In this document: piece by piece, positions 876-54,006 of the stretch | Layout: every line of letters begins with the position of its first letter | Position numbering within the stretch: position 1 is the first letter of the stretch | Assembly: GCF_003991155.1 (NCBI RefSeq) | Contig: NZ_CP031297.1 | Direction: 5' to 3' (one strand) | Source of the DNA: Escherichia coli | Lineage (GTDB): Bacteria; Pseudomonadota; Gammaproteobacteria; Enterobacterales; Enterobacteriaceae | Length of the DNA: 64,000 nucleotides | Made by a program: the position numbers and the translations under genes | Notes under the pieces: generated by a model | What the model was told of the DNA's origin: nothing | What the model saw: only the letters and a program-made list of their open reading frames with translations | Databases searched by the model: none

Positions 876-961
876 TAGAAAGTAATTGTTAGTGAGATAT
901 TGACTACACGGAATATGGCTATATCATAGAATCATAAAATGATGCTGTAAAAGTGATATGT

Positions 962-3078: not shown

Positions 3079-3086
3079 GGGGATAG

Positions 3087-3587: not shown

Positions 3588-3590
3588 CCA

Positions 3591-5674: not shown

Positions 5675-5729
5675 CAGCGCCAGATGTTCAAACCATGTTT
5701 TATAGCAACACCTCTTTGGGGGCGGAATT

Positions 5730-6347: not shown

Positions 6348-6554
6348 ATGGGATTTGGTGTGGACAAGATAGATCGGCAAAGTTGGCTCGTTAAATTCAG
6401 GCGAGCGAAGTGTCAGGACACTTTAGACACGATGCGGGATGCGGCCATTCGCAACTATGAAGGGAATATTCGTGTTATCGCGGATATTGTATTGGCCCAT
6501 GAGGCGAGAGAGACAGAAATTGAAAAAGGGATGTTTTGTCTAATAGTTAGATAG
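6348..6554 (+). CDS. Small hypothetical protein
   Basis: ATG adjacent to preceding stop (TGAATG); weak SD. Confidence 0.45.
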   Translation: MGFGVDKIDRQSWLVKFRRAKCQDTLDTMRDAAIRNYEGNIRVIADIVLAHEARETEIEKGMFCLIVR

Positions 6555-6579
6555 TCTGATGAGCTATCAGGTGGTGATT

Positions 6580-6858
6580 ATGAAAAAGAGAATACTTCAT
6601 CTGCCCGTAAAAAAGATTTACTTCGATCAGATCAAATCTGGAGAAAAACCAGATGAATATCGCCTCGTCACAGACTACTGGATAAAAAGACTAGAGGGGC
6701 GCGAGTATGATGAAGTCCATGTTAAGTGTGGCTACCCAAAGGCTGGAGATATGTCCAGGATAGAGATTCGTCCTTGGCGTGGCTTCTCAAGGAACGTCAT
6801 AACGCACCCGCACTTTGGAGATTATCCGGTTGAAGTATTCGCCATCCATGTGAATTGA
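6580..6858 (+). CDS. Small PUA/ASCH-like domain protein (tentative)
   Basis: ATG at 6580 with AGGTGG SD; resemblance to ASCH-type small proteins is from memory only. Confidence 0.6.
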   Translation: MKKRILHLPVKKIYFDQIKSGEKPDEYRLVTDYWIKRLEGREYDEVHVKCGYPKAGDMSRIEIRPWRGFSRNVITHPHFGDYPVEVFAIHVN

Positions 6859-6920
6859 TTTTGGTATTCTGATTTAAAACTATTGTAGCTCAGGTATCAA
6901 AAGAACTTGGGTAATTAAAG

Positions 6921-6950
6921 ATAAGGGGCCGACGGCCCCTTAATTGTTTT
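6921..6950. terminator. Bidirectional intrinsic terminator (GGGGCC-gacg-GGCCCC hairpin)
   Basis: GC hairpin flanked by A/T runs between convergent genes. Confidence 0.5.
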
Positions 6951-7437
6951 AGTTTGTGAATATTGAACAATCGAGGTGGGATAGCGCTTGTTCGTAGCTA
7001 CCTTTGTTGTTCGTCTTACGCAGTGCCACCAGCTCAACAATCAATTGGCTTAAAGCCAGTGATTGAGGCTCCCAGACGCGCTTGCATTTGTCAGCCATGT
7101 TGGCATTTACGTCTGTAATGACGTAGAGGAAATCAGGGACGTCTTTCAAGGTCCCCAGGCCTTTTGCCATATCAACAGCCTCAGGGTTTTGATAGCTTCG
7201 AGTGGCGCTCAGGTCATCGTGGGAAATATAGCTGGCAGATGTCTCAGCGAAACCTAACACCATGCCTTTTCCTGCGCTTTTTGCAATGGCCGAGCCGATA
7301 GCTAGAGTTGGCATGATGGCCTGACCTATTTGGCGGGTAGATGCAGTTGCCAAGCCTGAGGCGATGTTCTTCCCGGCATCTTCGGCAGTGGCAGAGCTGG
7401 TTGTGAGCATCGCAGTTAAAATGATTTTTCCAAACAT
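6949..7437 (-). CDS. Secreted Ala/Gly-rich protein (signal peptide MFGKIILTAMLTTSSATA)
   Basis: ATG at 7437 with GAGGA SD; in-frame part of ORF 6949..7497. Confidence 0.7.
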   Translation of the reverse strand: MFGKIILTAMLTTSSATAEDAGKNIASGLATASTRQIGQAIMPTLAIGSAIAKSAGKGMVLGFAETSASYISHDDLSATRSYQNPEAVDMAKGLGTLKDVPDFLYVITDVNANMADKCKRVWEPQSLALSQLIVELVALRKTNNKGSYEQALSHLDCSIFTN

Positions 7438-7451
7438 ACTTAATTCCTCTA

Positions 7452-35845: not shown

Positions 35846-35960
35846 GCAGACCCTAACGAATTTGCACGGGCATTTTAGATTATGCCCCAAAAGGGCCACT
35901 ACACGTACAGGTGGCCCTTGTCTTCTCAGATAGCATGGGAAGGTTGAAATGGAGAACACA

Positions 35961-38756
35961 ATGCGAAGTCATAATTACTTTATGAAAGCTGTGGCCTCGC
36001 TGTTGACAGTAACCATGTCTGCGCTGCCGATACATTCCTACGCTAACGGTAGCCAAGACCAGGACATCACAGCGGTGGGTAAAGAGGCCCAGGCTTTCGG
36101 ACAAAACCTCTCAAACTCATTCAAGTCGAGCTCGGGGACTGTGCAAGATGGCACAATCTCTATGCCGACGTTGAAAGACGGTCAATTCCAAATGAACGGG
36201 GGGAGTCAGATTAATGTCAATGATCTATTCCCCGGAACGAGCGGGACCAACAATAAACCTGATAGTTATTACTTCCCTGATGCCAATAAACCTGATGTGG
36301 GCGGTCTGCAAGGCATTTACGACTCTGGCGATGACATGGACAGCGTGGGGAATAATGCAAAAGGGTCGCTGTGGAGTGATGCCAATAGTGCTAATCCATC
36401 AATCTCTGGTGCGGCATACAAGGTTCTTCTCGATGCCTCTAATCGATCACGCCCTGATTTCAGTAATGACCCGGTACTAAATCTAAGCAAAAAGACCTAT
36501 GAGGATATGGACCTCATCGCAGGTGGCTTTGGGGATTGTTCTGCCGAAACAACCATCAATCAGAATACTATCAACGCCCACATTCCAGAGTATGAACGGT
36601 GTCAGCGTGTTGTAGATCAAAGCGCGGACTGTGAGGTTGTCCATGACTACGACGCCTCTGTGGTGAAGCACTATGATGGTCCATATAACCTCAAATCTTG
36701 TGGAGAAGGCTGTACTGAGTTGTGGATTGGTCGAGTGGGGGACAACTACTGGAGTGGTAACTGCAAGATTTATGAGGAGTACACGCGGGTCCAAGTCAGC
36801 AATCCAGATGCCATAGTGTCTGCAACGCTTGAATACGCCAAGTGGGATGACTACATGCAAGTGTGGGTCGGTAAGTCCGGCCAAGAGACTAAAGTGTGGT
36901 CTGGCCCAGATGGCAACTTCCCTCCAGAAACAGCCGGTAGATGTGAGCTCTCCACGAGTTGGGAGCGAAACCCTAATGTTGATGTCACTCCCTATTTTAA
37001 GAACGTGAAAGATGGTGATGTTGTTACGTTTAAGATCCGCGTTTCAGTAAGTGGCGAAGGTGAGGGTTTTGGCCGCATAAAACTCCGCTATGACCCATCG
37101 AAAGCCATTACCAAGGATGAGTGGGCTCCACAGAGCTGCATGGATTCAGCCAAAGGGGTGGTAGATGGTTTTGCGGAAGGCGAGATCACATGTATAGATG
37201 ACCCGACTGATGCTACTGGCTGCACAGTCATCAATGGGATCAAAGTTTGCGAATCTCAACTCAAGCCGTCACCTTTGCCTGGTATTCCAAAACTATGCAA
37301 AAAGGTTCGAGTTAAAGCTGACTATGACTTCTATAAGGGGCAAATGGACTGCTGGACAGACCCTCAAGGTGAAACGCACTGTCCGGTAAACACGGGCGGG
37401 AATCTCGATAGCTGTCAGAAATATGAAGAAAACCCTCAGTGCGGCTTCATCAGTTCCAAATGTGTTGATGGTGCTCAGGGAAGTTCTGGTACGTGCTACG
37501 TCCACGAGGATACTTATGACTGTGGTACAGATGTTTCTGTTCCGACCTTGGAAAAGGAAACTGAGTACCAGTGCGGTGGGCCTATACGCTGCATGGGAGA
37601 TGACTGCCTTGATTTGACCAAAACACAAAGCACTGATTTTGCTCGCGCTACTGCGTTGCTCAATGCAGCCCAATTCATGACGCAGGATATGAGCTGCACA
37701 GGCCAAGATGGGGATGACAATCCTACCGGGGATGAAAACGTTATTTGCTCTGCTTTTGCAGGGGAAGCTGGCGAATGCAAGATAGCTGTTGGGGGAGTTT
37801 CTGATTGCTGTGAAAAGCCAACCAATATATCTCTTGCCGATTATCTGAACCTAATAATGGCCGTTCCAAAGCTCGATGGCGCAGTGATGGGGCTGACTGA
37901 TGGTAATGCGCTTAAAGGTGCTTATCAGGTACTTAGGGAACCTGCCCTTCAAGGGTGGACAGAAGTCACAAAACCGTTCACAAGTTATATAGAGAACGTT
38001 TCAGGTGCTGTTGATTCGTTCTTCCAGCCTGTAGAGCAGTTTGTTGATCAACTCATTGACCAGCTCAAAGAGCAAGTCAAAGAAGTGATGATGGATGTCA
38101 TGAAATCAGCAGGCCAAGATGCAGCAACAGAGCAGGCGGCTGCCGCAGCATCTGAACAAGCTGCCGAAGCAATGATGGAGACTGCGACAACATGGCTTAG
38201 CACTGCCATGACGATATATACCGTCTATGTCGTTGCGATGGTGATGATCCAGATGATTTATAAGTGCGAGGAAGAAGAGTTCACTATGAACGCAAAAAGA
38301 GCGCTCAAGAATTGCACCTATGTAGGCTCTTATTGTAAATCTAAGGTGTTGGGCGCTTGTATTGAAAAAAGAGAAGCGTATTGCTGCTTCAATTCTCCGC
38401 TCTCTCGTATTATACAAGAACAGGTTCGCCCTCAATTGGGGCAGAACTTTGGAGACCCCAAAAATCCTCAGTGTGAAGGGATTCCACTAGATAAAATTGC
38501 CGAAATTGATTGGAGCAAAATTAATTTGGATGAGTGGCTTGGGATATTACAGCAGAACGGTAAATTCCCTGATCCGGCCTCAATAAATCTCGACTCGCTG
38601 ACTGGAGCAGGGAATGACTTCAATATTGACGGGACGCGGAAGAATGCTCAGGAAAGGGCGTTGGAGCGGTTGGAAGGGATTGATATTGACGCGAAGCGAA
38701 AAGAGGCGACAAACAGCATAGACCCTCAAACAGGCGCGCCAACTGGTGGTGGATAA
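35961..38756 (+). CDS. Cys-rich mating-pair stabilisation protein (TraG/TraN-like)
   Basis: ATG at 35961 with GGAGA SD; signal peptide; more than 30 Cys; C-terminal hydrophobic segment. Confidence 0.8.
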   Translation: MRSHNYFMKAVASLLTVTMSALPIHSYANGSQDQDITAVGKEAQAFGQNLSNSFKSSSGTVQDGTISMPTLKDGQFQMNGGSQINVNDLFPGTSGTNNKPDSYYFPDANKPDVGGLQGIYDSGDDMDSVGNNAKGSLWSDANSANPSISGAAYKVLLDASNRSRPDFSNDPVLNLSKKTYEDMDLIAGGFGDCSAETTINQNTINAHIPEYERCQRVVDQSADCEVVHDYDASVVKHYDGPYNLKSCGEGCTELWIGRVGDNYWSGNCKIYEEYTRVQVSNPDAIVSATLEYAKWDDYMQVWVGKSGQETKVWSGPDGNFPPETAGRCELSTSWERNPNVDVTPYFKNVKDGDVVTFKIRVSVSGEGEGFGRIKLRYDPSKAITKDEWAPQSCMDSAKGVVDGFAEGEITCIDDPTDATGCTVINGIKVCESQLKPSPLPGIPKLCKKVRVKADYDFYKGQMDCWTDPQGETHCPVNTGGNLDSCQKYEENPQCGFISSKCVDGAQGSSGTCYVHEDTYDCGTDVSVPTLEKETEYQCGGPIRCMGDDCLDLTKTQSTDFARATALLNAAQFMTQDMSCTGQDGDDNPTGDENVICSAFAGEAGECKIAVGGVSDCCEKPTNISLADYLNLIMAVPKLDGAVMGLTDGNALKGAYQVLREPALQGWTEVTKPFTSYIENVSGAVDSFFQPVEQFVDQLIDQLKEQVKEVMMDVMKSAGQDAATEQAAAAASEQAAEAMMETATTWLSTAMTIYTVYVVAMVMIQMIYKCEEEEFTMNAKRALKNCTYVGSYCKSKVLGACIEKREAYCCFNSPLSRIIQEQVRPQLGQNFGDPKNPQCEGIPLDKIAEIDWSKINLDEWLGILQQNGKFPDPASINLDSLTGAGNDFNIDGTRKNAQERALERLEGIDIDAKRKEATNSIDPQTGAPTGGG

Positions 38757-39777: not shown

Positions 39778-40419
39778 TTATGCTGCTTTTGTTTTCTCGG
39801 CTTCGTCTGCGATTTCCTTGTCGCCGGTTGCAGATTCCGGAGCGGCTTCGGCCACTTCACCTTCTTTGCCTTTGCTGTGGGCGGAAATGCGAGCCCGTTT
39901 CTCGATGCCGATGATTCGACCGGCCAGCTTGATGAGGCGTTGCTGCCATTGGTAAGTGGCGTCGGTGCGCTGCTTGCTGGTCAGTACGGTGTTCAGCCAG
40001 AGAGTGTCAACGATCCCCATCAGGGTATCCAGTTTGCGGATCAGGTGTGCAAACTGAGCAACCTGAGGAGAGTTGATCTCGATGGTGTATTCATTCGGGT
40101 TGGTGTAGCCGGGCATCATGTCGATGCCGTTGTCTTCCATCAGCTTGTTGAGCTGGGCGGTAGCTTTGTCCAGGTCTTCGGAGACCTTGGAAATGTGTTC
40201 CAGGATGACGGTTTCAACCTGGTCGATTTCGTCCTGCTCACCGATGATGCGAAGGATCACGTCGATGGAGAACAGGGAGTTGGAAACTCGCTCAAAGCTG
40301 CGTTCCATGACGCGCTGAGCTTGGAGGCTGTTTACTTTCAGAACTTGCTTGAAAACAGGGCGAGAGTAGTGGTTGCTGCGGTCGTTGTTTGTGTCCAGTG
40401 CTACTTGTGCTTCTGCCAT
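39778..40419 (-). CDS. Hypothetical protein with Lys/Glu-rich C-terminus
   Basis: ATG at 40419 with AGGAG SD (residue 21 of ORF 39778..40479). Confidence 0.75.
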   Translation of the reverse strand: MAEAQVALDTNNDRSNHYSRPVFKQVLKVNSLQAQRVMERSFERVSNSLFSIDVILRIIGEQDEIDQVETVILEHISKVSEDLDKATAQLNKLMEDNGIDMMPGYTNPNEYTIEINSPQVAQFAHLIRKLDTLMGIVDTLWLNTVLTSKQRTDATYQWQQRLIKLAGRIIGIEKRARISAHSKGKEGEVAEAAPESATGDKEIADEAEKTKAA

Positions 40420-40497
40420 TAGAGATACTCCTAAATTTGAGGTACAGATAAACGCACTGGAAAGGATAAATGCGGTCAATCTGTAACCTGACCTCTC

Positions 40498-40530
40498 GAA
40501 GTGCCCAAAATGGACAGTTACAGCGTTTTC
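40498..40530 (+). promoter_or_regulatory. Motif B (GTGCCC-AAAAT-GGAC ... TTACAGCG), copy 6
   Basis: Divergent intergenic region before the array. Confidence 0.4.
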
Positions 40531-40616: not shown

Positions 40617-40713
40617 TCTAGTCTTATGCCGTATGGCATTACTTAACCCCAAGCCGGGGGCTTCTCCCGGTTTTCGGGTGTTGCCCCTGTTTTTTTTACA
40701 TAGGAGCAACACC

Positions 40714-41034
40714 ATGCACATCATCACTTTCATTGTAGTTCTGCTTGCATCTCTGGGCGCACTGTACGTAGGCGCGAAGGCATTTGCTTTTTCCTTCATC
40801 GTTCTCGCTAAAGTGTTCCAGCGTATCGGTTTGTTCCTTTGGAACAAATTCGCAGTTCCTGCAATGCGGTCTGTACAGGCCGTCATCAAAGAACGTGCTG
40901 CCAAGGCTGAACAAGCCAAAGCAGTCGTTGAACCTGAGGTAACTCAAGTTCAAGAAGTCGCTAAACAAGAACCTGACTGGGATTATCTCGAAATCCCGAC
41001 TTACCTTCGTAAGGGCAAGGAACTTGTTTGGTAA
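40714..41034 (+). CDS. Small membrane protein carrying an FtsZ C-terminal-peptide-like tail (EPDWDYLEIPTYLRK)
   Basis: ATG at 40714 with AGGAG SD; N-terminal hydrophobic 35 aa; C-terminus matches the FtsZ conserved C-terminal peptide (E. coli ...EPDYLDIPAFLRKQAD, from memory). Confidence 0.75.
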   Translation: MHIITFIVVLLASLGALYVGAKAFAFSFIVLAKVFQRIGLFLWNKFAVPAMRSVQAVIKERAAKAEQAKAVVEPEVTQVQEVAKQEPDWDYLEIPTYLRKGKELVW

Positions 41035-41523: not shown

Positions 41524-41600
41524 GGGAGTAGCCTCCAGGAGAGGCTACTCTCCTCGCTCCTTAAAAGTCTTCTTACTCATGGTGAATACCATCAGTAAGC

Positions 41601-41660
41601 AGATTTTGTTCTCTTCGGAGAGCGAAAAGTGCGATAGCTGGTCGCCAAAAACAAACAGCA
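41601..41660 (+). promoter_or_regulatory. Leader element C, copy 2 (hairpin CTCTTCGGAGAG, hairpin GCGA-TAGCTGG-TCGC, CAAAAACAAACAGCA)
   Basis: Part of a 121-bp block identical to 46436..46556. Confidence 0.5.
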
Positions 41661-41742
41661 AATTAACGTTAATTTACTAGCCCAACCGGGCGCATCCGCC
41701 CGGTTCGGGACGTGGTGCGCCTGTCACAATAGGAGCGCACCT

Positions 41743-42711
41743 ATGTCTCAATACTCTCAATTCTCAGTAAGCAAGGTTTTCGGTATGCCCAGCATTCCGG
41801 AGAAGGTAACGGCCATCGGCTACGCTGACGGTTCAAACCCTTTCATCCCTGCCACTGATACCAACTACGTTTTCCGCAAAGAGTTTCTGCGAGAGGTCTT
41901 GGCCTATCTCAAAGAGCCTGGCGGTGACGCATTGTTCGTAACCGGCCCTACCGGGTCTGGCAAAACCTCAGGTATCACCGAGATCGCTGGTCGTCTCAAC
42001 TGGCCTGTTCAGCAAATCACTGCCCACGGGCGGATGGAGCTGACAGATCTGATTGGACATCACGCTCTGGTCGCGGAAAAGCCTGGTCAACCACCTGTCA
42101 TGAAGTTCATGTATGGACCTCTGGCAGTCGCTATGCGTGAAGGTCATCTGCTCCTCATCAACGAGGTGGATTTGGCCGACCCTGCCGAGCTGGCTGGTCT
42201 CAACGATGTCCTTGAAGGGCGTCCCCTTGTGATCGCTCAGAATGGCGGGGAAATCATCAAGCCGCACCCGATGTTTCGTGTGGTCGTTACTGGTAACTCT
42301 ACGGGGTCCGGTGATGCTTCTGGTTTGTACCAGGGGGTGATGATGCAGAACCTCGCAGCTATGGATCGCTATCGTTTCACCAAAGTAGGGTATGCGGATG
42401 AGGAAGCTGAACTCAGCATTCTTGGCCGTGCTACTCCGAAACTTCCGGAAAATGTGCGGAAGGGAATGGTTCGGATTGCTAATCAGGTCCGCAAACTGTT
42501 TCTTGGCGAAAACGGTGAAGATGGTCAGATCAGCGTCACCATGTCCACTCGGACGTTGGTGCGTTGGGCGAAACTGTCTCTAGCGTTCCGTGGTGCCCCA
42601 AATGCTCTTGAATACGCCTTGGATCAAGCTCTGCTTATCCGTGCGGCCAAAGAGGAGCGTGAAGCCATCCTGCGTGTTGCGAAGGATGTGTTCGGGGACC
42701 AATGGCGCTAA
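41743..42711 (+). CDS. AAA+ ATPase, MoxR/CobS-like
   Basis: Walker A GPTGSGKTS; Walker B LLLINEVD; 322 aa. Confidence 0.85.
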   Translation: MSQYSQFSVSKVFGMPSIPEKVTAIGYADGSNPFIPATDTNYVFRKEFLREVLAYLKEPGGDALFVTGPTGSGKTSGITEIAGRLNWPVQQITAHGRMELTDLIGHHALVAEKPGQPPVMKFMYGPLAVAMREGHLLLINEVDLADPAELAGLNDVLEGRPLVIAQNGGEIIKPHPMFRVVVTGNSTGSGDASGLYQGVMMQNLAAMDRYRFTKVGYADEEAELSILGRATPKLPENVRKGMVRIANQVRKLFLGENGEDGQISVTMSTRTLVRWAKLSLAFRGAPNALEYALDQALLIRAAKEEREAILRVAKDVFGDQWR

Positions 42712-42721
42712 GAGGTGACGC

Positions 42722-43630
42722 ATGAAGAAAAATGACTGTTTGTGCCGTCGTTACACTGCTAAAGAGTGGGGCAATGACGAAACCACAATAGAAGTCTTCA
42801 TTGGCTACAAGTTGCTCCGGGAGCCCAGCTCCTCGGAGCCAGGCCAATTCACGATGGTCGAGCTACGCCGAACCGTCACTGATGGGAAAGCTGAAAATTG
42901 GTCTGAGACAAAGCTCGAAGGACCTTTTGAAGCTAACGGCCCAGACACGATCCCAATGTCCTACAAGGACAAAGAAAGCCAGTATGTGTCACAGTTTCTC
43001 AGCCAGGGGTACACCTTTCTGGATGAGGTGCTGGTAAACGCAGAGACACAGACGGTGCTGGAAGGGGGGAATGTTTCAGCCGGACAAACAGCCAGCTTGG
43101 GATCTCTCAACTGGCTGTTATCTCCGCCCTCTGAGTTACCTCCAGGTGACATAAACCTCTTCAAAGGTTTTGTTGCTGGGGTTTTTGCCAAAGGAGCCGG
43201 TTTAATCGGCTTTGAGGTTGCTCGGAGCGAAGGCTCAAATGACTTGCTACCCAGTGTGCTGATGCGTACTGACAGCGGTTATGAGCTTGGGGTTAGCACT
43301 GGACTAGGCGAAAACACTATCCATCCAGCTACGCTGGAAGGCGCTGGTGAACTCCGCCCGGAACATGGTCACAAACCCCTGCTGATGTTGGTTTACCTGC
43401 AACAGCGTTTCGCGGATGACTTTTCAAACGTAGAGAAGCCGCTGGTGGCATTCTGTGATGAACAGGGTGATACCTTCGACTACGAGCGTTTTGATTCACT
43501 AAAACCCCTCATTGAACGGTTTGGTTTCAGCTACGACGAAGTAAGAGCAGATGCAGAAAGGCTTGGCCTTGTATCTGAGCTGATTCGCCTGGCAGAGATC
43601 GACGCCGAACAAGAGGATCACTTTTTTTAA
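42722..43630 (+). CDS. Hypothetical protein
   Basis: AGAGGTGA SD; 302 aa. Confidence 0.8.
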   Translation: MKKNDCLCRRYTAKEWGNDETTIEVFIGYKLLREPSSSEPGQFTMVELRRTVTDGKAENWSETKLEGPFEANGPDTIPMSYKDKESQYVSQFLSQGYTFLDEVLVNAETQTVLEGGNVSAGQTASLGSLNWLLSPPSELPPGDINLFKGFVAGVFAKGAGLIGFEVARSEGSNDLLPSVLMRTDSGYELGVSTGLGENTIHPATLEGAGELRPEHGHKPLLMLVYLQQRFADDFSNVEKPLVAFCDEQGDTFDYERFDSLKPLIERFGFSYDEVRADAERLGLVSELIRLAEIDAEQEDHFF

Positions 43631-43675
43631 CCCTTACGGGGGCTTGCTCCCCGAAAGGGGCGTTGGCCCTCTCCA
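43629..43675 (+). repeat. Intercistronic GC-hairpin element (AACCC-N-CGGGGG...CCCCG type), example 1
   Basis: Starts at the preceding stop codon; one of at least 17 similar elements between genes from 43.6 to 63.8 kb. Confidence 0.6.
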
Positions 43676-43693
43676 AATAACTTGGAGGTCATG

Positions 43694-44221
43694 ATGTCTA
43701 AAGGCGTCAACAAAGTAATTCTGGTCGGTAATCTCGGTTCTGACCCGGAAATTCGCTACATGCCAAGCGGCACTGCCGTTGCCAACTTCAACGTTGCAAC
43801 AACGGATACGTGGCGCGATAAGCAGTCTGGCGAGCAAAGAGAGCATACTGAGTGGCACCGTATTGTGCTTAAAGGTCGTTTGGCGGAAGTCGCTGGTGAG
43901 TACCTGAAAAAGGGCTCCCAAGTCTATCTCGAAGGGAGCAACCGCACCCGGAAGTGGACTGACAGCCAACAAATCGAGCGCTACACCACCGAAGTACACT
44001 GCGTTGAAATGCAGATGCTTGGTGGTCGTGGAAATGCACCTCAGGACAACTCTCAACGTGCAGCGCCCCAAAAAGGGCAACGTACAGGAGCCGGTACGCA
44101 ATCTGCTCCTGTGCAGCAATCAGCACCGCAAGGTGGTATGGGCGGAGGCTATGGTCCCGCTCCTGATGGCTGGGATGATGACATCCCGTTCATGCGGCTG
44201 CACCACTTGGCTGGCGGGTAA
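43694..44221 (+). CDS. ssb: Single-stranded DNA-binding protein
   Basis: OB-fold N-terminus, Gly/Gln-rich linker, acidic tail DDDIPF. Confidence 0.95.
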
Positions 44222-44238
44222 CACCGCCAACTCTTACT

Positions 44239-44284
44239 AAACCCCACGGGGGCACTCATGCCCCGAGGGGGTCATGGTGTCCTC
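44239..44284 (+). repeat. Intercistronic GC-hairpin element, example 2 (CATGGTGT pairs with ACACCATG at the recT start)
   Basis: Upstream segment is complementary to the SD/start region. Confidence 0.6.
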
Positions 44285-44315
44285 AAACCGTTCATTCGTG
44301 AATTGGAGAAACACC

Positions 44316-45305
44316 ATGTCTGATAACAAATCTCTTGTAACCCGTATCGCAAGCCGGTTTGGCGTGGACACCCGAAAGTTCTATGAAACTTTGAAGGCGA
44401 CCGCATTCAAGCAGCGAGATGGAAGTGCCCCGACCGATGAGCAGATGATGACGCTCCTGATCGTGGCTGAACAGTACGGTTTGAACCCTTTCACTCGGGA
44501 AATCTATGCGTTTCCTGACAAGCAAAATGGGATCATTCCGGTAGTAGGTGTTGATGGTTGGAGCCGCATCATCAACGAGCATCCCCAGTATGATGGCGTC
44601 GAGTTCGTGTATTCGGACAAGATGGTCAGAATGCAGGGGGCGAAAGTTGACTGCCCTGAGTGGATTGAATGCGTGATTTACCGTAAGGACAGATCTCGCC
44701 CTATCCGCATCAAGGAGTTCATTGATGAGGTGTACCGTGAACCGTTTCAGGGTCAAGGTCGCAATGGTGCTTACACTGTTGATGGCCCCTGGCAAACGCA
44801 CACCAAGCGTCAACTCCGGCACAAGTCGCTGATCCAGTGTTCTCGTGTCGCATTTGGTTTCTCTGGTATTTATGACCAGGATGAAGCTGAACGCATCCGT
44901 GAAATGGAGCAGGCATCGGCCATTAACCCGGCTATTGCCAATCTCCCTTCACCATCTCAAGTTCAAAGCCAAGAGCCTTTGGCTATTGAGCACAAAGAGC
45001 TTGACCCGATCCTAACCAAACTCGCAAATCGCGCCATTGCTGAAAACGCATGGTCTGCGGCGCATGAGTATGTGAAGGGACGGTATGAAGGTTCGGAACT
45101 GCAATATGCGACTCAATTCCTTCGTGACAAGGAGATGGATCAAATGGAGCCTCCGAAACCTGACTACCAGGAAGCGCACGAGCAAGAGTCCGCCGCTGGT
45201 GGTTCTGCAAATGCTGAACCTGGTGCCGAAGAAATGCCGCCTTTGAGTGACGAGGACATGATCCCTGTTACAGAAGAGGAGGGCGCGGAAGGCAGTTACT
45301 ACTAA
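44316..45305 (+). CDS. recT: RecT/Red-beta-like single-strand annealing protein (tentative family assignment)
   Basis: ATG at 44316 with GGAGA SD; followed by YqaJ-type exonuclease; acidic C-terminus. Confidence 0.7.
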   Translation: MSDNKSLVTRIASRFGVDTRKFYETLKATAFKQRDGSAPTDEQMMTLLIVAEQYGLNPFTREIYAFPDKQNGIIPVVGVDGWSRIINEHPQYDGVEFVYSDKMVRMQGAKVDCPEWIECVIYRKDRSRPIRIKEFIDEVYREPFQGQGRNGAYTVDGPWQTHTKRQLRHKSLIQCSRVAFGFSGIYDQDEAERIREMEQASAINPAIANLPSPSQVQSQEPLAIEHKELDPILTKLANRAIAENAWSAAHEYVKGRYEGSELQYATQFLRDKEMDQMEPPKPDYQEAHEQESAAGGSANAEPGAEEMPPLSDEDMIPVTEEEGAEGSYY

Positions 45306-45346
45306 CCCCAACGGGGGGGACTCCCCCGCTGGGGGAGATCTCCCTC
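45303..45346 (+). repeat. Intercistronic GC-hairpin element, example 3
   Basis: CGGGGGG-act-CCCCCG hairpin then GGAGATCTCC palindrome. Confidence 0.6.
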
Positions 45347-45367
45347 CTAACCATTGGAGAGAGGTCC

Positions 45368-46378
45368 ATGAAAATAGTCAACCTATCGCAACGCGAGGAA
45401 GATTGGCTTGATTGGCGGCGTCAAGGTGTAACAGCCACTGACGCCGCTATCCTGCTCAATCGGTCTCCGTACAAAACACGATGGAGACTGTGGGCCGAGA
45501 AGACTGGGTATGCGCGTGAAGTCGATCTGAGTCTTAATCCGCTGGTTCGCCGGGGGATAGAAAACGAAGATGCTGCAAGACGCGCTTTCGAGGAGAAGTA
45601 TGATGACATGCTGCTCCCCGCCTGTGTCGAATCGGTTCAATACCCGCTCATGAGGGCCTCCCTGGATGGCCTGAGAGATAACGGGGAGCCCGTCGAGCTG
45701 AAAAGCCCGAGTGCGACTGTCTGGGAAGATGTTTGTGCTGAGAAAGCAAACAGCAAGGCATACCAGCTTTATTACCCGCAGGTGCAACACCAGCTCCTGG
45801 TAACGGGGGCCAAGCAAGGCTGGTTAGTCTTCTACTTTGAAGGTCAGATTCAGGAGTTTCCAATACTCCGAGACGAAGCCATGATTCAAGAAATCTTGGC
45901 CGAGGCTAAAAAGTTCTGGCAACAGGTAGTAGACAAGAAGGAGCCCGACAAAGATCCAGAGAGAGACCTGTACATACCGCAAGGTGAAGAGGTCAACCGT
46001 TGGATTGCTGCTGCTGAGGAATACCGCCTCTATGATGCAGAGATTCAGGAGCTGAAACAGCGACTGTCTGAGCTTCAAGAAAGGCAAAAGCCTCATCTCG
46101 ACACCATGAAGTCCCTCATGGGGGAATACTTCCATGCCGACTACTGCGGTGTGATGGTAACGAGATACAAAGCGGCTGGCCGGGTAGACTACAAAAAGCT
46201 GTTGGCTGATAAGGCGTCAGGCGTGAAGCCTGAGGATGTTGACCAGTACAGAGAGAAGTCATCAGAGCGGTGCCGTGTAACGGTTACTGGCTCTGTGAAG
46301 CCACGGTACATTGTTGATGAGGACGTGCTTGCTCCTCTTGATGATTTGCCGGAAGAAGTAGAGACGTTCTACTGGTGA
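45368..46378 (+). CDS. YqaJ-like recombination exonuclease
   Basis: N-terminal TATDAAILLNRSPYKTRWRLW pattern; 336 aa. Confidence 0.8.
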   Translation: MKIVNLSQREEDWLDWRRQGVTATDAAILLNRSPYKTRWRLWAEKTGYAREVDLSLNPLVRRGIENEDAARRAFEEKYDDMLLPACVESVQYPLMRASLDGLRDNGEPVELKSPSATVWEDVCAEKANSKAYQLYYPQVQHQLLVTGAKQGWLVFYFEGQIQEFPILRDEAMIQEILAEAKKFWQQVVDKKEPDKDPERDLYIPQGEEVNRWIAAAEEYRLYDAEIQELKQRLSELQERQKPHLDTMKSLMGEYFHADYCGVMVTRYKAAGRVDYKKLLADKASGVKPEDVDQYREKSSERCRVTVTGSVKPRYIVDEDVLAPLDDLPEEVETFYW

Positions 46379-46435
46379 GTGGGGGATTTTCCCCCGCTTT
46401 CCCTTGGGGATTCTGGGAGTCTCCAACGGAAAGCA

Positions 46436-46495
46436 AGATTTTGTTCTCTTCGGAGAGCGAAAAGTGCGATAGCTGGTCGCCAAAAACAAACAGCA
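46436..46495 (+). promoter_or_regulatory. Leader element C, copy 3 (identical to copy 2)
   Basis: 121-bp identity with 41601..41721. Confidence 0.5.
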
Positions 46496-46577
46496 AATTA
46501 ACGTTAATTTACTAGCCCAACCGGGCGCATCCGCCCGGTTCGGGACGTGGTGCGCCCCCAACTTTTTGGAGTGCATC

Positions 46578-47855
46578 ATGACTAAAGTGAACCATCTACA
46601 AAGCCTCTGTGTTATCCACGTAGACTTTGACATCTGGAGTGGACAAACCCGTTTGTCTGCATCTGATCTCAAGCTGGGCGAGGGTGGTGAAATTCCACCT
46701 GAGAAAGTAGCTCAACTGGGAAGTAAGAAGATCTGTGATCCGGCTAAGCTGAAAGGCTTTCATCGCCTGAAAACAGAAACTCGTCGCCTCCTGCTGAAAT
46801 TCGGTATGCCGTTCATGAACGGATTTGCCGTACCCGTCAGCAAGACCGATGAAATCTGTAACAAGCTGAATGACATCAACTTTCAGTTTAACCAACTGAA
46901 ACAGGATTTCATCAAAGGTTACAACAAAGCCGTGGATGAATGGTGTCAGGAGAACCCTGAGTATGAACGAGCTATCCGTGCCGGAGCCCTTCCAAAGGAA
47001 ACGGTCGAGGAGCGGATTGGCTTTGAGTACCAGGTGTTCATGATCCAGCCTGTGAACGAAGATGAGGCCAACGCCAAACGCCTTAACCGCAAGGTTGAGC
47101 GCCTGGGTGACGATCTCATCTCCGAAGTGGTTCAGGAAGCGAATAAGTTCTATATGGAACGTTTGGCCGGTCGAGACCAATGTGCGGTCACTACTCGGCA
47201 GACACTCCGTAACATCCGCGACAAGGTGGATGGGCTTAGCTTCCTGAACAGCGCTTTTAACCCTCTGGTCAAGCTGCTCGACCAAACCCTCCGGGGATAC
47301 GAGCAACATGCCGATGGCCGAAACATCGTTGCGCCTTTCTTTTATCAGGTCGTGGCCGCAGTGCTGATCATGAGCGAGAGGGACCGCATCGAGCAGTATG
47401 CCAATGGCTCGATTACTGTAGAGGGCATGGCTAATGACATTGGCGGTTCGGGAGCCCAGATGGGGGACCGTTCTAAAGATGAAAAGGCCGAACAGAAAAG
47501 CGATAAAGCCGGTGAGCTTATCCCTGCAACAGAGGGTGGCGAAACCAAGCAGCAACAGGTAGGTGGTACTGAATCTGTTCAATCAGAACAGACTAACAGC
47601 GGTGGTAACTCTGTTGACCTGGATGAAGACATCGACAACTTCTTCAAGAGTTTTGCAGAACGAGGCGAGGGTGAATCGGAAGATGAATCCAATGCCGGTG
47701 ATGTGGTTCGAGAAGAGCGTGTTGATGTTGAGGATGAGCTGGTTTTGCCTGAGGAAACTCCGGTAGAGCAAGAGCCTGTCCAAGAGGAGACGACAGAGGA
47801 GCCTCTCAACCAGGAGCTGCCTAAAACTGACGACGATGGCGACTATTTCTTCTAA
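46578..47855 (+). CDS. Hypothetical protein with acidic C-terminal tail
   Basis: ATG at 46578 with GGAG SD; 425 aa. Confidence 0.8.
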   Translation: MTKVNHLQSLCVIHVDFDIWSGQTRLSASDLKLGEGGEIPPEKVAQLGSKKICDPAKLKGFHRLKTETRRLLLKFGMPFMNGFAVPVSKTDEICNKLNDINFQFNQLKQDFIKGYNKAVDEWCQENPEYERAIRAGALPKETVEERIGFEYQVFMIQPVNEDEANAKRLNRKVERLGDDLISEVVQEANKFYMERLAGRDQCAVTTRQTLRNIRDKVDGLSFLNSAFNPLVKLLDQTLRGYEQHADGRNIVAPFFYQVVAAVLIMSERDRIEQYANGSITVEGMANDIGGSGAQMGDRSKDEKAEQKSDKAGELIPATEGGETKQQQVGGTESVQSEQTNSGGNSVDLDEDIDNFFKSFAERGEGESEDESNAGDVVREERVDVEDELVLPEETPVEQEPVQEETTEEPLNQELPKTDDDGDYFF

Positions 47856-47939
47856 TAGTCACTTCAACTAAACCGACCCGGAGGGGATAGCCATTCCCTC
47901 CAGGGGTGGACTATCTCCTTCCCTACCAGGAGAAAAGAT

Positions 47940-49736
47940 ATGTCCAAAAAACGCACCATTTACAGCGCTCTACCAATCGTGGCCGCAGCCTATGGTGAAA
48001 AACTCGGTGTCAAAGTCGCCATCGGTAACGATGACGCATACACCGATGGTAAGACCATCGTGGTTCCGAATATCCCCGACGACTATCCTCACATGGATGC
48101 TGTCTGGGGGTATTTGGCCCATGAAGCAGCCCATGTCCGGTTTACGGACTTTGGTGTTGAGCGCCGCAGAGGTCTTCATGCTGAGTTGTCCAACGTTTTG
48201 GAGGACTGCCGCATAGAACGGGCCATGATGGAACTCTTCCCCGGTACGTCGCAGACCCTGAATGAGGTTGCTCGCTATATGGCTCAAGCTGGTCATTACG
48301 AGCACGTCACAGACAAAGAGGCCCCTGCCTCCATTCTGACAGGGTTTTGTTTGTACTGGTTGCAAACCAAGGCTGTAGGGCAATCCGTCCTTCAACCCTA
48401 TCTCGATTCGGCTACCCCCGTATTCGAGCGCGTGTTCCCTCAGGGTGTTGTTGTTCGGCTGAACGCTTTACTGCGTAAGGCTGTGAACACTAAGTCAACC
48501 GCAGAGGTGACATCCTTGGCCGACCAAATCATCAAGATGATCGAGGAGGAAAAGGAGAAAGAAGAGCAAAAGCCCCAGAATGGTCAGGATGGTAACAACC
48601 AGCAGAATGCTGGTGGCAACCAACCTCAGAACAGTCAGGGCGGAAGTGGTAACGATCAAAACCAAGGGCCTGATGCCAATGGTGGTGATCAGCAAGGTAA
48701 AGACCAGAAGCAAGACGATGCTAACGGGAAATCTGATCCGAAAGGACAGGGCGACCAAGGCAAGTCGGATACTGATGGTGGCAGCAAGGCAGGACAAAGC
48801 CAGGCTGGTGGCAATTCTGACGCGGCGAAACAAGACGCGGCCAAAATGCTCCAGCAGGTTCTGAATGCCGGTGCCGGTGATTTGCGTGGTGACGCGCATG
48901 ATGCACTTAAAGCCGAGCTCAACCGGGTGGCTCAAGATAAGGGGGACAGTAGCTATATGACTGTTCGCTCTGCTGTGAACACCCAGGACAACCCTGCTGT
49001 TGGCAAAAGCCTGGTAGGGGATGTGAAGAGCACCACTTCAAAGATAAGAACGCAGCTCTACGGATTGGTCCAGGCCAGCCAGCGAGTTGCTCACCGTAAC
49101 CAACGATCAGGGAAGCGTGTGGATGCTCGGAAACTACATCGTGTAGTGACGGGTGATACCCGCGTATTCCTCAAGCCAGAAGCCAAGAAACGCCCTAATA
49201 CGGCGGTTCACATCCTGGTTGATATGAGCTCCTCGATGGCCTACAAGGCCGCCAATGGAAAGGAGCGTCAAGACATTGCGCGGGAAGCGTCCTTGGCTAT
49301 TTCGATGGCTCTGGAAGCAATACCCGGCGTAAACCCGGCAGTCACCTTTTTTGGTGGCAACCGGAACCAGCCAGTGTTCAGTGTCGTGAAGCATGGAGAT
49401 ACGGTTCAGAATCGGGCCGGTCGGTTTGGGTTCAAAGCAACTGGCGGTACGCCTATGGCGGAAGCTATGTGGTATGCAGCTTTTGAACTCACCAAGACCC
49501 GTGAAGAGCGAAAAATGTTGATCGTAGTGACTGACGGGCAGCCTCAAAGAGCCCCGGCATGTCGCTCAGTGATTGACCTCTGTGAACGAAGCGATGTTGA
49601 GGTGATCGGCATAGGGGTAGAGACTACCGCAGTGTCAGGACTGTTCCAAAAGAACATTGTCATTGATGATGCGGCAGCTCTGCAACGCACACTGTTTAAG
49701 TTGATGGAGCGGTCATTGACTGCTTTTGCAGCTTAA
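47940..49736 (+). CDS. VWA-domain protein, CobT-like architecture (N-domain, Gln/Gly/Asp-rich linker, C-terminal VWA)
   Basis: MIDAS motif VDMSSSM, then GGTPM and VTDGQP. Confidence 0.85.
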   Translation: MSKKRTIYSALPIVAAAYGEKLGVKVAIGNDDAYTDGKTIVVPNIPDDYPHMDAVWGYLAHEAAHVRFTDFGVERRRGLHAELSNVLEDCRIERAMMELFPGTSQTLNEVARYMAQAGHYEHVTDKEAPASILTGFCLYWLQTKAVGQSVLQPYLDSATPVFERVFPQGVVVRLNALLRKAVNTKSTAEVTSLADQIIKMIEEEKEKEEQKPQNGQDGNNQQNAGGNQPQNSQGGSGNDQNQGPDANGGDQQGKDQKQDDANGKSDPKGQGDQGKSDTDGGSKAGQSQAGGNSDAAKQDAAKMLQQVLNAGAGDLRGDAHDALKAELNRVAQDKGDSSYMTVRSAVNTQDNPAVGKSLVGDVKSTTSKIRTQLYGLVQASQRVAHRNQRSGKRVDARKLHRVVTGDTRVFLKPEAKKRPNTAVHILVDMSSSMAYKAANGKERQDIAREASLAISMALEAIPGVNPAVTFFGGNRNQPVFSVVKHGDTVQNRAGRFGFKATGGTPMAEAMWYAAFELTKTREERKMLIVVTDGQPQRAPACRSVIDLCERSDVEVIGIGVETTAVSGLFQKNIVIDDAAALQRTLFKLMERSLTAFAA

Positions 49737-49753
49737 CAGGAAGTGAAACGACA

Positions 49754-49787
49754 AACGGCTATCCCTTCGGGGGTGGCCGTTTTTATT
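49754..49787 (+). terminator. Possible intrinsic terminator
   Basis: ACGGC...GCCGT stem with inner CCCTTCGGGG, followed by TTTTTATTT. Confidence 0.4.
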
Positions 49788-50145: not shown

Positions 50146-50178
50146 CTTTGCACCCGAAAAGGGCAGTTTGAGCGTTCC
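50146..50178 (+). promoter_or_regulatory. Motif B (GCACCC-GAAAA-GGGC ... TTTGAGCG), copy 7
   Basis: Stem GCCC/GGGC with GAAAA loop. Confidence 0.4.
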
Positions 50179-51528: not shown

Positions 51529-51601
51529 TCTTAATCCCTAACCAGGGGCGAACCGGCCCCTGATGGGAGCATGGTGCGCCCCATCTATGATGGAGGACGC
51601 C

Positions 51602-52486
51602 ATGTTCAAATCATCAGTATGCTCCTACGAAAACAGGGGGCCTTACGGAAACAACAAGTACCGAGGCAACTGCTCGGGCTTTATCGTTAAAGACTTCATT
51701 GAGTCTTACATGAGAAAGCCGAACGGGCTGGTGGCAGACCCAAGTGTTGGGGGTGGCTCTAGCATCGACGTTGCCAATGAACTTGGTGTCCGTTTCAAAG
51801 GGACAGACTTGCATCAGGGGTTCAACCTGTTGCGGGATGACTTCCTTTCGTTCCTCGGAGAGCCTGCACACCTGATCTGGTGGCACCCTCCTTACTGGGA
51901 CATGATCCAGTATTCAGGTAAGCAGTGGGGCGAGCCCAACAAATGGGATATGAGCCGCATGAATTTGCCTGAGTTCGTTGAAGCCCTTGAGCTGGCCGTT
52001 ATGAATATTCATGACGCCTGTGAGCGAGGAGGGCATTACGGAATCCTCATGGGAAACCTGAGGCGCGATGGGGATTATTTCAACCTGTCCAGCCTTGTGG
52101 AACGTATCGCACCTGGGAAGCTGGTGGATGAGATCATCAAAACACAGCACAACTGTGTGAGTGACCGAACTCAGTATTCCGGGAAGCTGGTGCGTATCGC
52201 CCATGAAAAGCTGTTGGTGTTTCGTCGTAACGACGTTGCCTCATCGCTCTGTCTTCTTGCTGCCGTACACCGTCGAGCAACCAATATGGTTTCGACTACG
52301 TGGAAAGCTGCAATACGCCGAACCCTACAGGGGAAAACGTTGAAGCTGGAGCAGATTTACAAAGAGATTGAACCCTACGCAAAGCATCGAGAGAACAACC
52401 ACTGGCAAGCAAAGGTCAGGCAAGTTCTTCAAGATGCCAGGTTCTTTATTCGCATCGAGGTAGGTGTCTATGCACTTGCTGAGTAG
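51602..52486 (+). CDS. Putative DNA methyltransferase (motif I-like ADPSVGGGSS, motif IV-like HPPY)
   Basis: ATG at 51602 with GGAGGA SD; motif order I then IV about 50 aa apart. Confidence 0.65.
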   Translation: MFKSSVCSYENRGPYGNNKYRGNCSGFIVKDFIESYMRKPNGLVADPSVGGGSSIDVANELGVRFKGTDLHQGFNLLRDDFLSFLGEPAHLIWWHPPYWDMIQYSGKQWGEPNKWDMSRMNLPEFVEALELAVMNIHDACERGGHYGILMGNLRRDGDYFNLSSLVERIAPGKLVDEIIKTQHNCVSDRTQYSGKLVRIAHEKLLVFRRNDVASSLCLLAAVHRRATNMVSTTWKAAIRRTLQGKTLKLEQIYKEIEPYAKHRENNHWQAKVRQVLQDARFFIRIEVGVYALAE

Positions 52487-53227: not shown

Positions 53228-53669
53228 CCGATACACGGCCAGGGAGTCTGACAAAAGTCGGATACTTCGGACCATAGGCTGGTGCAAGCGCAACCACCTT
53301 ACACTTGCCGGTCTTCCATACGAGGACAATCTTGCAGGAAGTGATGGGATCAGCATAGAGATCATCACTCCTCCTGGTATGTCGCGGGAAATGTTGGAGC
53401 AAGCCGTCAGAGAGGGGTATTCAGAGCGAGATGTCGTAAGGCATCGCATTCTGGAGTGCCCTGTCGGTTGGTTCATGGAAGCTGATGGCAAGGCATTTGA
53501 TCATGAAGTGTTCCACGATTACGTGGTGGCTCATGGTTATGGCGAACCTTCCAGCGAAGCCTATGAGCTGGCGGAGCGGTGGTTCTGGCAGGGCAACGAT
53601 TATGCGTTGATAGCTGCGGAAATAGTTGCTCGTGATCTTTGTGTTCGTGATGACGAAGATGAGGACTGA
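53217..53669 (+). CDS. Hypothetical acidic protein
   Basis: ATG at 53217 with GGAGG SD; C-terminal DDEDED. Confidence 0.7.
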   Translation: MQLNRYTARESDKSRILRTIGWCKRNHLTLAGLPYEDNLAGSDGISIEIITPPGMSREMLEQAVREGYSERDVVRHRILECPVGWFMEADGKAFDHEVFHDYVVAHGYGEPSSEAYELAERWFWQGNDYALIAAEIVARDLCVRDDEDED

Positions 53670-53673
53670 TCCT

Positions 53674-53949
53674 ATGGATGCTGTAGCGCATATAGCAGCA
53701 GATAACCTTGTACCGGCATGTGGAGGTGCAGAGAAGCCGTTTACCGTTAGTGGTAGACAGTGGCTTTACTGCTATCACCCAGCCAGTGGGAGGCACTGCT
53801 ACTTAGACCTCGATAATGACCGTCCAGTCTGGCATCGAGGATTTCATCCTGCTTTTCATCCTGAGCTTGAGTTCGCTGATGAAGCTGAGTTGCTTCGACC
53901 AGTTGAGCGAAAGCCTGACCATGAAGAGCTGGAGGATTTTTACTTTTAA
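53674..53949 (+). CDS. Small hypothetical protein
   Basis: ATG at 53674 with GAGGA SD. Confidence 0.6.
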   Translation: MDAVAHIAADNLVPACGGAEKPFTVSGRQWLYCYHPASGRHCYLDLDNDRPVWHRGFHPAFHPELEFADEAELLRPVERKPDHEELEDFYF

Positions 53950-54006
53950 CCCACGGGGCCGCTCTTCCTGATGGGAGACGGTCCTCCATTCTCAAAGGAG
54001 AAGACC

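Follow-up and report, generated by a model that had tools for sequence, protein, structure and literature searches.

The present analysis concerns a stretch of 64,000 nucleotides from the Escherichia coli contig NZ_CP031297.1 (assembly GCF_003991155.1), referred to throughout as the window, which contains at positions 41,743–49,736 the genes of a CobS-like AAA+ ATPase and a CobT-like VWA protein, separated by ssb, recT, yqaJ and the genes of two further proteins. The ATPase (vcrx089) and the VWA protein (by gene order, vcrx095) probably form the core of a motor–adaptor complex of the CobST/NorQD type serving the evasion of host defence by a conjugative plasmid. Their pairing is supported by homology, matching architecture and conserved gene linkage, and it is very likely that they belong to one physical complex. 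The initial annotation of this DNA had already suggested the pairing, with both unknown neighbours as members, and homology and gene linkage now speak for it; the open reading frames (ORFs) of the MoxR/CobS-type ATPase, the CobT-like VWA protein, ssb/recT/yqaJ and the two unknown proteins lie exactly where it had placed them, and Pfam agrees with these assignments. The searchable literature yielded no paper linking IncC plasmids or SXT elements with VWA, DUF3150 or MoxR proteins, nor the ATPase with a VWA or DUF3150 protein; neither the pairing of the CobST type nor the four-gene module nor the tail motif presented below appears to have been described there.

The CobS-like ATPase

The ATPase (41743..42711, + strand, 322 amino acids) belongs to the MoxR class of AAA+ proteins and contains both the AAA_5 core (Pfam, 7e-16) and the CbbQ_C small-subdomain extension (3.8e-15). 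Among the sequences of the PDB it matched the solved CobS (9ujv_A, 4.6e-32) as well as NorQ, CbbQ and midasin. Its catalytic set comprises the Walker A motif GPTGSGKT, E141, the sensor-1 residue N185, the arginine finger R209 and the sensor-2 residue R270, the last three lining up with N186, R210 and R271 of CobS (numbering taken from bioRxiv 10.64898/2026.07.21.739949). The helix at the extreme C-terminus is strongly conserved (...IA.DVFGD.W, the copy in the window ending ...DVFGDQW), and the corresponding region in both CobS and NorQ binds the N-domain of the partner protein (bioRxiv 10.64898/2026.07.21.739949; PMC13036017). The Walker B motif reads Asn140-Glu141 instead of Asp-Glu (positions 42160–42168, residues 140–142), as it does in essentially all 47 members of the subfamily, the Asp-Glu form being retained in the related ATPases of an SSU5-like phage-plasmid (locus L062) and a MOBH plasmid (locus L063). 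Against the CobS equivalog model TIGR01650 the ATPase scored 105.2 bits, the cut-off being 558.55.

The CobT-like VWA protein

The gene of the VWA protein (47940–49736, + strand, 598 amino acids) encodes a product with Pfam matches to VWA (2.8e-9), VWA_2 and CobT (5e-6), the last one borderline with 26.6 bits at a cut-off of 26.1; no match was obtained with the NCBIfam models. [quoted passage not shown] The CobT_N-like N-domain covers residues 1–205 (47940..48554, +). It is followed at approximately residues 205–300 (48555..48839, +) by the disordered linker rich in Gln, Gly, Asp and Lys, the length of which varies among homologues; the Gln/Gly/Asp-rich linker seen in the initial annotation is thus real. 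The shaft-like conserved segment, recognized by its conservation and by the profile alignment to CobT residues ~340–429, occupies residues ~360–412 (49017..49175, +) with the pattern TTSKIRxQLxGLVQASQR...SGKRLD...RVVxGDTRVF; in CobT the shaft extends from Q373 to R413 and goes into the CobS ring on ATP binding (bioRxiv 10.64898/2026.07.21.739949). The VWA domain (49197..49733, +) carries the complete MIDAS (D428, S430, S432, T504 and D532), invariant in the 20 homologues.

Concerning the N-domain, the residues H61, E62, H65 and R67 of an HExxH motif (H61-E62-x-x-H65-x-R67), along with N85, E88, D89, R91 and E93, show no variation among 39 sequences with identities as low as 32%. The AlphaFold2 (AF2) model (pLDDT 86.5) places the HExxH residues on one helix (52–68) and the acidic residues on the next one (79–99), after two β-strands. 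This corresponds to the arrangement of zincins, in which the HExxH motif lies on a helix and an acidic ligand on the following helix. The motif is also present in the homologues from the phage-plasmid and the MOBH plasmid. The genuine CobT_N has been described as M48C-like (bioRxiv 10.64898/2026.07.21.739949). The profile of the N-domain gave no CobT_N match among the PDB sequences, and the N-terminus of the solved CobT never aligned with the VWA protein. An active peptidase is a tentative proposal, and the cleft with the HExxH motif may be where a C-terminal peptide is bound or clipped.

Two further observations concern the same protein. [quoted passage not shown] In addition, an E. coli protein of 569 residues (P0009) combines the RecT and VWA Pfam domains and is 95% identical to the VWA protein of the window; it is probably a deletion derivative joining bet to the VWA gene.

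Linkage of the genes across mobile elements

In order to compare the gene neighbourhoods, patterns derived from the alignment of the VWA proteins were scanned over one genome per species, which resulted in 60 loci. These were annotated by tblastn and iterated hidden Markov models (HMMs) built from the proteins of the window, and the counts were taken from the 45 loci that extend 8 kb or more upstream from the VWA gene. The DUF3150 gene was found in all 45, the ATPase gene in 44, exo in 42, bet in 40 and a vcrx090-like gene in 37, in the last case as an ORF directly 3' of the ATPase gene detected by the iterated HMM. The order SSB–RecT–YqaJ–ATPase–(vcrx090-like)–DUF3150–VWA is contiguous in 26 loci, including those from Methylococcaceae, Chromatiaceae, Marinobacterium, Thorsellia and Methyloversatilis, with VWA proteins sharing 30–40% identity. 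In these contiguous loci the ATPase, vcrx090-like, DUF3150 and VWA genes form one block, their stop and start codons often overlapping. The four proteins are those that the initial annotation had picked out. In 17 loci, representing the IncC/SXT-like lineage to which the window belongs, the ATPase–vcrx090 pair is positioned upstream of bet and exo. It should also be mentioned that a 297-kb MOBH plasmid has the contiguous order, followed by traF–traH–traG.

A single locus (L013, on a metagenome-assembled gammaproteobacterial contig) keeps DUF3150–VWA but lacks a CobS-like ATPase in the 10 kb upstream. The place of the ATPase is taken there, at 33–7650, by genes of an AAA_11/12 helicase, a PIN protein, a ClpB-like AAA_2 ATPase and a radical-SAM protein; the island looks like an inserted defence island, and the ATPase may simply lie further off.

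The host plasmid and the transcription unit

The host element is a conjugative IncC plasmid, in agreement with the initial annotation, which had assumed a conjugative element. A region of 9.5 kb is 100% identical at the nucleotide level to many IncC plasmid records of PLSDB; the matches comprise 862 records, 840 of which are typed as conjugative, at least 80% of the region being covered in 727 of them, and one example record is typed as IncC, MOBH and MPF_F. The gene traN (35949–38756) lies just upstream of the module, and the gene set and order match those of the hde (host defence evasion) operon situated between traN and traF on the IncC backbone. The part of the region corresponding to vcrx089–vcrx093 is the published hde operon, since the nucleotide identity to IncC is 100% and the Pfam content fits, gene by gene, the published description of vcrx089–093 (PMC7498323).

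The region 40.5–49.8 kb is read here as one IncC transcription unit continuing through the DUF3150 and VWA genes. Its start is probably marked by an AcaCD-box-like palindrome GCCCAAAATGGAC (40503..40515, no strand assigned), which matches the published motif GCCCNDWWWGGGC with one mismatch and lies in the divergent acaB/vcrx087 promoter region; both the motif and this promoter pair have been described previously (PMC8373056). The AcaCD-dependent promoters published for the region are acaB–vcrx087 and, as the next one, vcrx098, the vcrx087 promoter being constitutive and additionally activated by AcaCD (PMC8373056). A second AcaCD-box-like site was found by the motif scan at 50152–50164. The probable end of the unit is a terminator-like hairpin (49753..49782, +) with a 13-bp stem followed by TTTTTATTT, located 17 nt past the stop codon of the VWA gene. 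The genes vcrx087 through vcrx094 are co-transcribed, as reverse transcription PCR (RT-PCR) detected vcrx087, vcrx089 and bet in cDNA primed at the vcrx094 3' end (PMC7498323). The RT-PCR, the published AcaCD promoters, the AcaCD-box-like sites and the hairpin following the VWA gene thus together indicate a single transcript that carries the genes of the ATPase, vcrx090, ssb, bet, exo, DUF3150 and the VWA protein.

The first gene of the unit (40633..41034, +), vcrx087 by its position in the ORF list, encodes a basic protein of 133 residues that belongs to no family and is kept in the relatives. Divergently from the operon runs a minus-strand gene (39778–40479; 233 residues, no Pfam family), by its position acaB. 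Downstream of the unit there are genes for a DNA methyltransferase (51563–52486, +), with a weak N6_N4_Mtase match and a DpnI_C-like helix-turn-helix, and for a C-5 cytosine methylase (55614–57239, +; 9e-29), both of which probably add to restriction evasion. Of the PADLOC defence models, mad8 alone was matched, weakly and through the P-loop (2.7e-4), and vcrx090, DUF3150 and the VWA protein matched none.

The remaining proteins of the module and their C-terminal tails

The gene vcrx090 (42722..43630, +) encodes an acidic protein of 302 residues (net charge -24) without a Pfam family, ending ...EDHFF, for which only 17 close homologues were found. The possibility that it acts as a DNA mimic is weakened by the median net charge of the vcrx090-like proteins, which is only -4. 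The DUF3150 protein (46578..47855, +; 425 residues, Pfam 4e-91; by gene order vcrx094) consists of a domain of ~270 residues and a long acidic tail ending ...GDYFF, and is regarded as the constant third partner of the ATPase/VWA pair. The recombination part of the operon is formed by the plasmid SSB (vcrx091; 43691..44221, +; Pfam SSB), the RecT-family single-strand annealing protein Bet (vcrx092; 44316..45305, +, with the RefSeq start at 44316 and the longest ORF from 44274), ending ...GSYY, and the YqaJ-family exonuclease Exo (vcrx093; 45368..46378, +; Pfam YqaJ), ending ...ETFYW. An annealase of the RecT family, a YqaJ exonuclease and an SSB in one operon correspond, by their Pfam content, to a Lambda Red-like recombination module. 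In the SSB the DDDIPF tip is internal and followed by nine residues (MRLHHLAGG), so that the Phe carboxylate, which is the usual contact of host partners, is not free; the same extension is found in loci L005 and L008, whereas more distant relatives end ...DDDIPF.

The proteins vcrx090, Exo and DUF3150, although unrelated, have a common C-terminal ending. Two aromatic residues terminate 40 of 42 vcrx090-like proteins, 41 of 45 Exo proteins and 47 of 54 DUF3150 proteins, and 6 of 43 Bet proteins, these being confined to the IncC-like lineage; such an ending occurs in none of the ATPase, VWA and SSB sequences and in only 12 of 1875 other ORFs of at least 100 amino acids. Typical endings are DFYF, DFWF, GFYF, DHFF and TFYW, mostly preceded by acidic residues. 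Six ORFs of at least 60 amino acids in the window end in this way, four of them being genes of the module. An independent set of 150 DUF3150 representatives, drawn from 2045 matches in a library of 1.8 billion proteins, showed F, Y or W as the last residue in 134 and two aromatics in 107 cases. The small extra ORFs located in some loci between the DUF3150 and VWA genes bear the same tail; on the divergent MOBH plasmid the endings are ...VVF, ...MVF and ...IVF, reminiscent of the SSB tip ...IPF.

The occurrence of the tail on the unrelated vcrx090-like, Exo and DUF3150 proteins suggests a shared docking signal, and it may thus serve for recruitment; that the docking partner is the ATPase/VWA hub is put forward with reserve. 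The tails were considered also as translocation signals of the type IV secretion system, which was judged less likely because expression of vcrx089–090 in the donor gave no complementation.

The same tail was observed outside the operon, on an ORF of ~98–107 residues (53626–53949, +) ending ...EELEDFYF. It is unannotated, RefSeq giving the opposite-strand ORF 53747–53989 instead, and it has a counterpart with 57% amino acid identity in a Halomonas locus (L016, 13879–14142, ending ...PDPFYW).

The leader repeats

The blocks headed by leaders, which the initial annotation had pointed out, are clearly present. A structured leader of the rptI type precedes the ATPase gene (41592..41726, +; RNA fold z = -6.1) and a second full leader precedes the DUF3150 gene (46427..46561, +; z = -3.9). 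Their layout is as follows: hairpin 1, hairpin 2 with the invariant loop TAGCTGG, an A-rich tract AAACAAACAGCA, a GC hairpin and a final stem covering the Shine-Dalgarno sequence and the ATG. The core motif has six plus-strand copies (at 40591, 41635, 46470, 50302, 54716 and 58498), with none expected by chance. For hairpin 2, the comparison of 44 distinct copies from the window and its relatives revealed that 96.6% of positions pair, with 42 double-sided changes and a covarying 4-bp stem; none of 500 shuffles was as good, and the slid controls pair at 28–53%. The motif is kept in the IncC/SXT-like relatives only. The six copies correspond to the rptI repeats, known as substrates of the Bet/Exo repair (PMC7498323). 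An interpretation of the leaders as AcaCD boxes was rejected, the published box GCCCNDWWWGGGC being found beside the leaders and not within them, and Rfam, applied to the whole window, returned no family. The leaders may control the translation or processing of each gene block.

Over 121 nt (41601–41721 and 46436–46556, 4,835 bp apart) the two full leaders are 100% identical, and these identical segments flank exactly the five published hde genes, from the ATPase gene through exo. Recombination between them would delete the five genes, joining the leader to DUF3150–VWA, and such an event may explain why the ATPase block is split from DUF3150–VWA in this lineage.

Proposed function

Multidrug resistance is carried to a large extent by IncC plasmids and SXT/R391 elements, whose broad host range depends partly on the hde operon. 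Without vcrx089–090 the evasion of type I restriction is lost: their deletion reduced the transfer into Vibrio cholerae O395 25-fold, with no drop in the case of its hsdR mutant, and complementation worked only from the recipient, while ssb, bet and exo repair the breaks made by Cas3 through annealing of short repeats (PMC7498323). In E. coli the same deletion increased the restriction by EcoKI/EcoBI 400–900-fold, and a deletion of exo that by EcoBI 426-fold; the DUF3150 and VWA genes located downstream were not discussed (PMC11602122). The anti-restriction mechanism of the ATPase has been called novel and unresolved by its discoverers, and the CobS/CobT-type pairing offers the missing half, i.e. 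the VWA protein, together with a third partner, DUF3150, both encoded 4 kb downstream in the same operon. That the VWA and DUF3150 proteins are themselves required for anti-restriction seems somewhat more plausible than the opposite.

By analogy with CobST and NorQD, from which the model is derived, vcrx089 and vcrx095 would represent a MoxR-class motor–adaptor pair. The ATPase would form a hexameric ring, the shaft preceding the VWA domain would enter the channel of the ring, and the N-domain of the VWA protein would dock on the ATPase's C-terminal helices. ATP turnover would then rotate the VWA domain against the N-domain, straining the acidic linker, with the client gripped between the N-domain and the MIDAS. 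The proteins vcrx090 and DUF3150 would be the other constant partners, recruited together with the YqaJ exonuclease and (in IncC) Bet via the acidic-aromatic tail; since the capture of a substrate peptide is a general property of vWA domains (PMC7159879), the tail-bearing proteins are the natural candidates for the captured client. The output would be the neutralization in the recipient of restriction complexes, type I most of all, on the newly entered plasmid, alongside the break repair by SSB, Bet and Exo. It could be reached either by direct removal or proteolysis of the restriction complexes, for which ArdC provides a precedent (PMC7213743), or by promotion of the ClpXP-dependent restriction alleviation that is triggered by recombination of plasmid DNA (PMC11109961).

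Several facts weigh against this model. The loci were retrieved with peptide patterns of this particular VWA subfamily, so the co-occurrence counts hold for that subfamily only, and the Asn in the Walker B motif, judged from the sequence, may mean that the motor hydrolyses ATP slowly or serves as a switch. The transposon sequencing (TnSeq) screen flagged only vcrx089–093 (PMC7498323); a restriction-specific role would, however, cancel out in it, because both the Cas+ and Cas- recipients carried a type I system. Complementation was achieved with vcrx089–090 alone, although the incoming plasmid still carried vcrx094–095 (PMC7498323). Finally, deletions of several genes of this interval in SXT (bet, exo, s067, s068 and s070) changed the E. 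coli-to-E. coli transfer at most 10-fold (PMC2791158), the SXT names not being matched to DUF3150/VWA; these small effects fit a role outside the transfer machinery.

The alternative that survives best is that the operon houses two separate systems, the ATPase working with vcrx090 only, and DUF3150 with the VWA protein performing an unrelated anti-defence or maintenance task, possibly with an AAA+ partner from the host. Apart from the complementation by vcrx089–090 alone, it would account for the distance of 4.8 kb between the two pairs in IncC, each having its own leader, and for the locus L013 that keeps only DUF3150–VWA. It is nevertheless unlikely in view of the ATPase gene being present in 44 of 45 loci and adjoining DUF3150–VWA in 26, and of the homology of both proteins to an obligate motor–adaptor pair, with the shaft and the C-terminal ATPase helix conserved; moreover, vcrx094–095 were still supplied by the plasmid in the complementation assays, and a foreign island sits in L013 where the ATPase would be, leaving room for an ATPase further away.

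According to another explanation, the ATPase/VWA complex is an accessory of recombination that loads, activates or regulates Exo, Bet and SSB on the incoming DNA, e.g. by assembly of the nuclease with the annealase or by metal insertion, the anti-restriction effect arising indirectly through recombination-triggered alleviation. The linkage to Exo (42/45 loci) and Bet (40/45), the tail shared by Exo and, in IncC, Bet with vcrx090 and DUF3150, and the 426-fold effect of the exo deletion (PMC11602122) are in favour of this, as are the ClpXP-dependent alleviation of EcoKI restriction upon plasmid recombination (PMC11109961) and the fact that the MoxR/VWA pairs known so far act as chaperones for metal insertion or assembly. 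The defect of vcrx089–090, however, was complemented in trans with ssb, bet and exo untouched, the phenotype of the ssb-to-exo deletion was tied to Cas3 breaks, and vcrx094/095 were not flagged for CRISPR evasion by TnSeq (PMC7498323); in addition, SSU5-like phage-plasmids and ICP2-like phages possess CobS/CobT-like pairs without adjacent recT/yqaJ. The explanation is rather improbable. It comes near to the idea of the initial annotation that the complex acts with SSB/RecT, the support for which is only circumstantial: the yqaJ/recT linkage is nearly universal, but the published phenotypes are separable, vcrx089–090 acting on restriction and ssb/bet/exo on CRISPR-Cas.

A genuine cobaltochelatase, i.e. 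an auxiliary metabolic pair for cobalamin or porphyrin synthesis, as the homology to CobS and CobT, the record annotations ('cobalamin synthase', 'CobT', 'porphyrin biosynthesis protein') and the PHROG names might suggest, is extremely improbable, the constant neighbours being DUF3150, yqaJ, recT and ssb on conjugative elements. The ATPase/VWA pair is not a cobalt chelatase, because CobN is missing, the scores are far below the equivalog cut-off (105 versus 558.55 bits for the ATPase, with the VWA protein lacking any NCBIfam match) and the role shown experimentally is anti-restriction (PMC7498323, PMC11602122); a function other than cobalt chelation had also been expected in the initial annotation. 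CobN was sought among the seven ORFs of at least 600 amino acids in the window, which encode a topoisomerase, TraI, TraD, an immunoglobulin-like giant protein, TraC, one unknown protein and the annotated TraN (35949–38756); none of them is CobN, and the window contains no cob gene.

Returning to the motor–adaptor complex, its most far-reaching version, which is speculative and unlikely to hold in all its parts, would be an undescribed anti-defence machine with a CobST-type AAA+/VWA motor and an adaptor having a live zincin domain. The machine would read a 'tail code', acidic residues followed by two to three aromatics with a free carboxylate, on vcrx090, DUF3150, YqaJ, sometimes RecT, and small ORFs, and, powered by ATP, would assemble, deliver or clip them on the incoming DNA, stripping or degrading type I complexes during break repair. 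In that case the 'CobS/CobT' genes of phages and phage-plasmids, at present annotated as cobalamin or porphyrin metabolism, would be relatives of this anti-defence or DNA-entry motor under a wrong name.

Comparison with known systems

The closest known system is the hde operon of pVCR94 (PMC7498323; PMC11602122), with which the module shares both the genes and the plasmid family. There the ATPase together with vcrx090 confers anti-restriction in the recipient, and ssb, bet and exo repair breaks made by Cas3 and by restriction. The operon as published stops at exo, whereas here it is extended through the DUF3150 and VWA genes, vcrx094 having previously served only as a primer site for reverse transcription. 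In the published work, the mechanism was left open and the ATPase was not seen as one half of a CobS/CobT-type pair.

The likeness to CobS–CobT (PDB 9ujv/9uka) consists in the homology of the ATPase (4.6e-32), with sensor-1, the arginine finger and sensor-2 in register, in the C-terminal ATPase helix, and in the disordered linker, which has ~90 residues in CobT and an acidic equivalent of ~90–100 residues here, the shaft then preceding the VWA domain directly. Unlike CobST, however, the module lacks the CobN client and cob genes, has the Asn-Glu form of Walker B and is accompanied by the constant partners DUF3150 and vcrx090; the HExxH in its VWA N-domain is invariant, while the CobT paper mentions neither zinc nor HExxH. 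The pairs NorQ–NorD and CbbQ–CbbO (PMC13036017, PMC9976466) also combine a CbbQ_C-type MoxR ATPase with a large VWA protein built of an N-domain, a long linker and a VWA domain. In NorQD the pore takes up the VWA finger, the C-terminal helices carry the N-domain, and the N-domain and the MIDAS hold the client (PMC13036017). Both pairs capture their clients via the MIDAS and acidic residues, these clients being metalloenzymes (cNOR and Rubisco); the context here is, in contrast, DNA entry on mobile elements, with module proteins or host restriction complexes as the likely clients. ArdC of R388 (PMC7213743) resembles the module in acting from the recipient side against type I restriction (hsdRMS) and in joining a DNA-related function to a metalloprotease domain; it differs in consisting of one protein only, without an AAA+ or VWA partner, and no sequence relationship was detected.

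CobS/CobT-like pairs occur on SSU5-like phage-plasmids, ICP2-like vibriophages (ICP2 gp41), Rhizobium and Roseobacter phages and haloarchaeal tailed viruses, where they are annotated as cobalamin or porphyrin biosynthesis proteins (PHROG 249, 1576/17276). For example, the Shigella sonnei plasmid pMHMC-002 (L062, 7001–10440) has a CobT-like gene with HEVAH...EDVFIE beside an AAA ATPase and dnaE. Around 1500 PLSDB records are alike, representing non-mobilizable phage-plasmids of ~110 kb from Klebsiella, E. coli, Yersinia and Acinetobacter with the same annotation, which is likely a misannotation of these genes; the comparison suggests that 'cobalamin/porphyrin biosynthesis' is a wrong annotation in hundreds of cases, on plasmids as well as on phage-plasmids and phages. 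The phage pairs have no DUF3150, vcrx090 or aromatic-tailed neighbours, their Walker B reads Asp-Glu and they adjoin replication genes (dnaE, ligase). They nevertheless share with the IncC pair a homologous ATPase and a VWA protein having the same HExxH...EDxxIE motif in its N-domain, carried on mobile elements without CobN.

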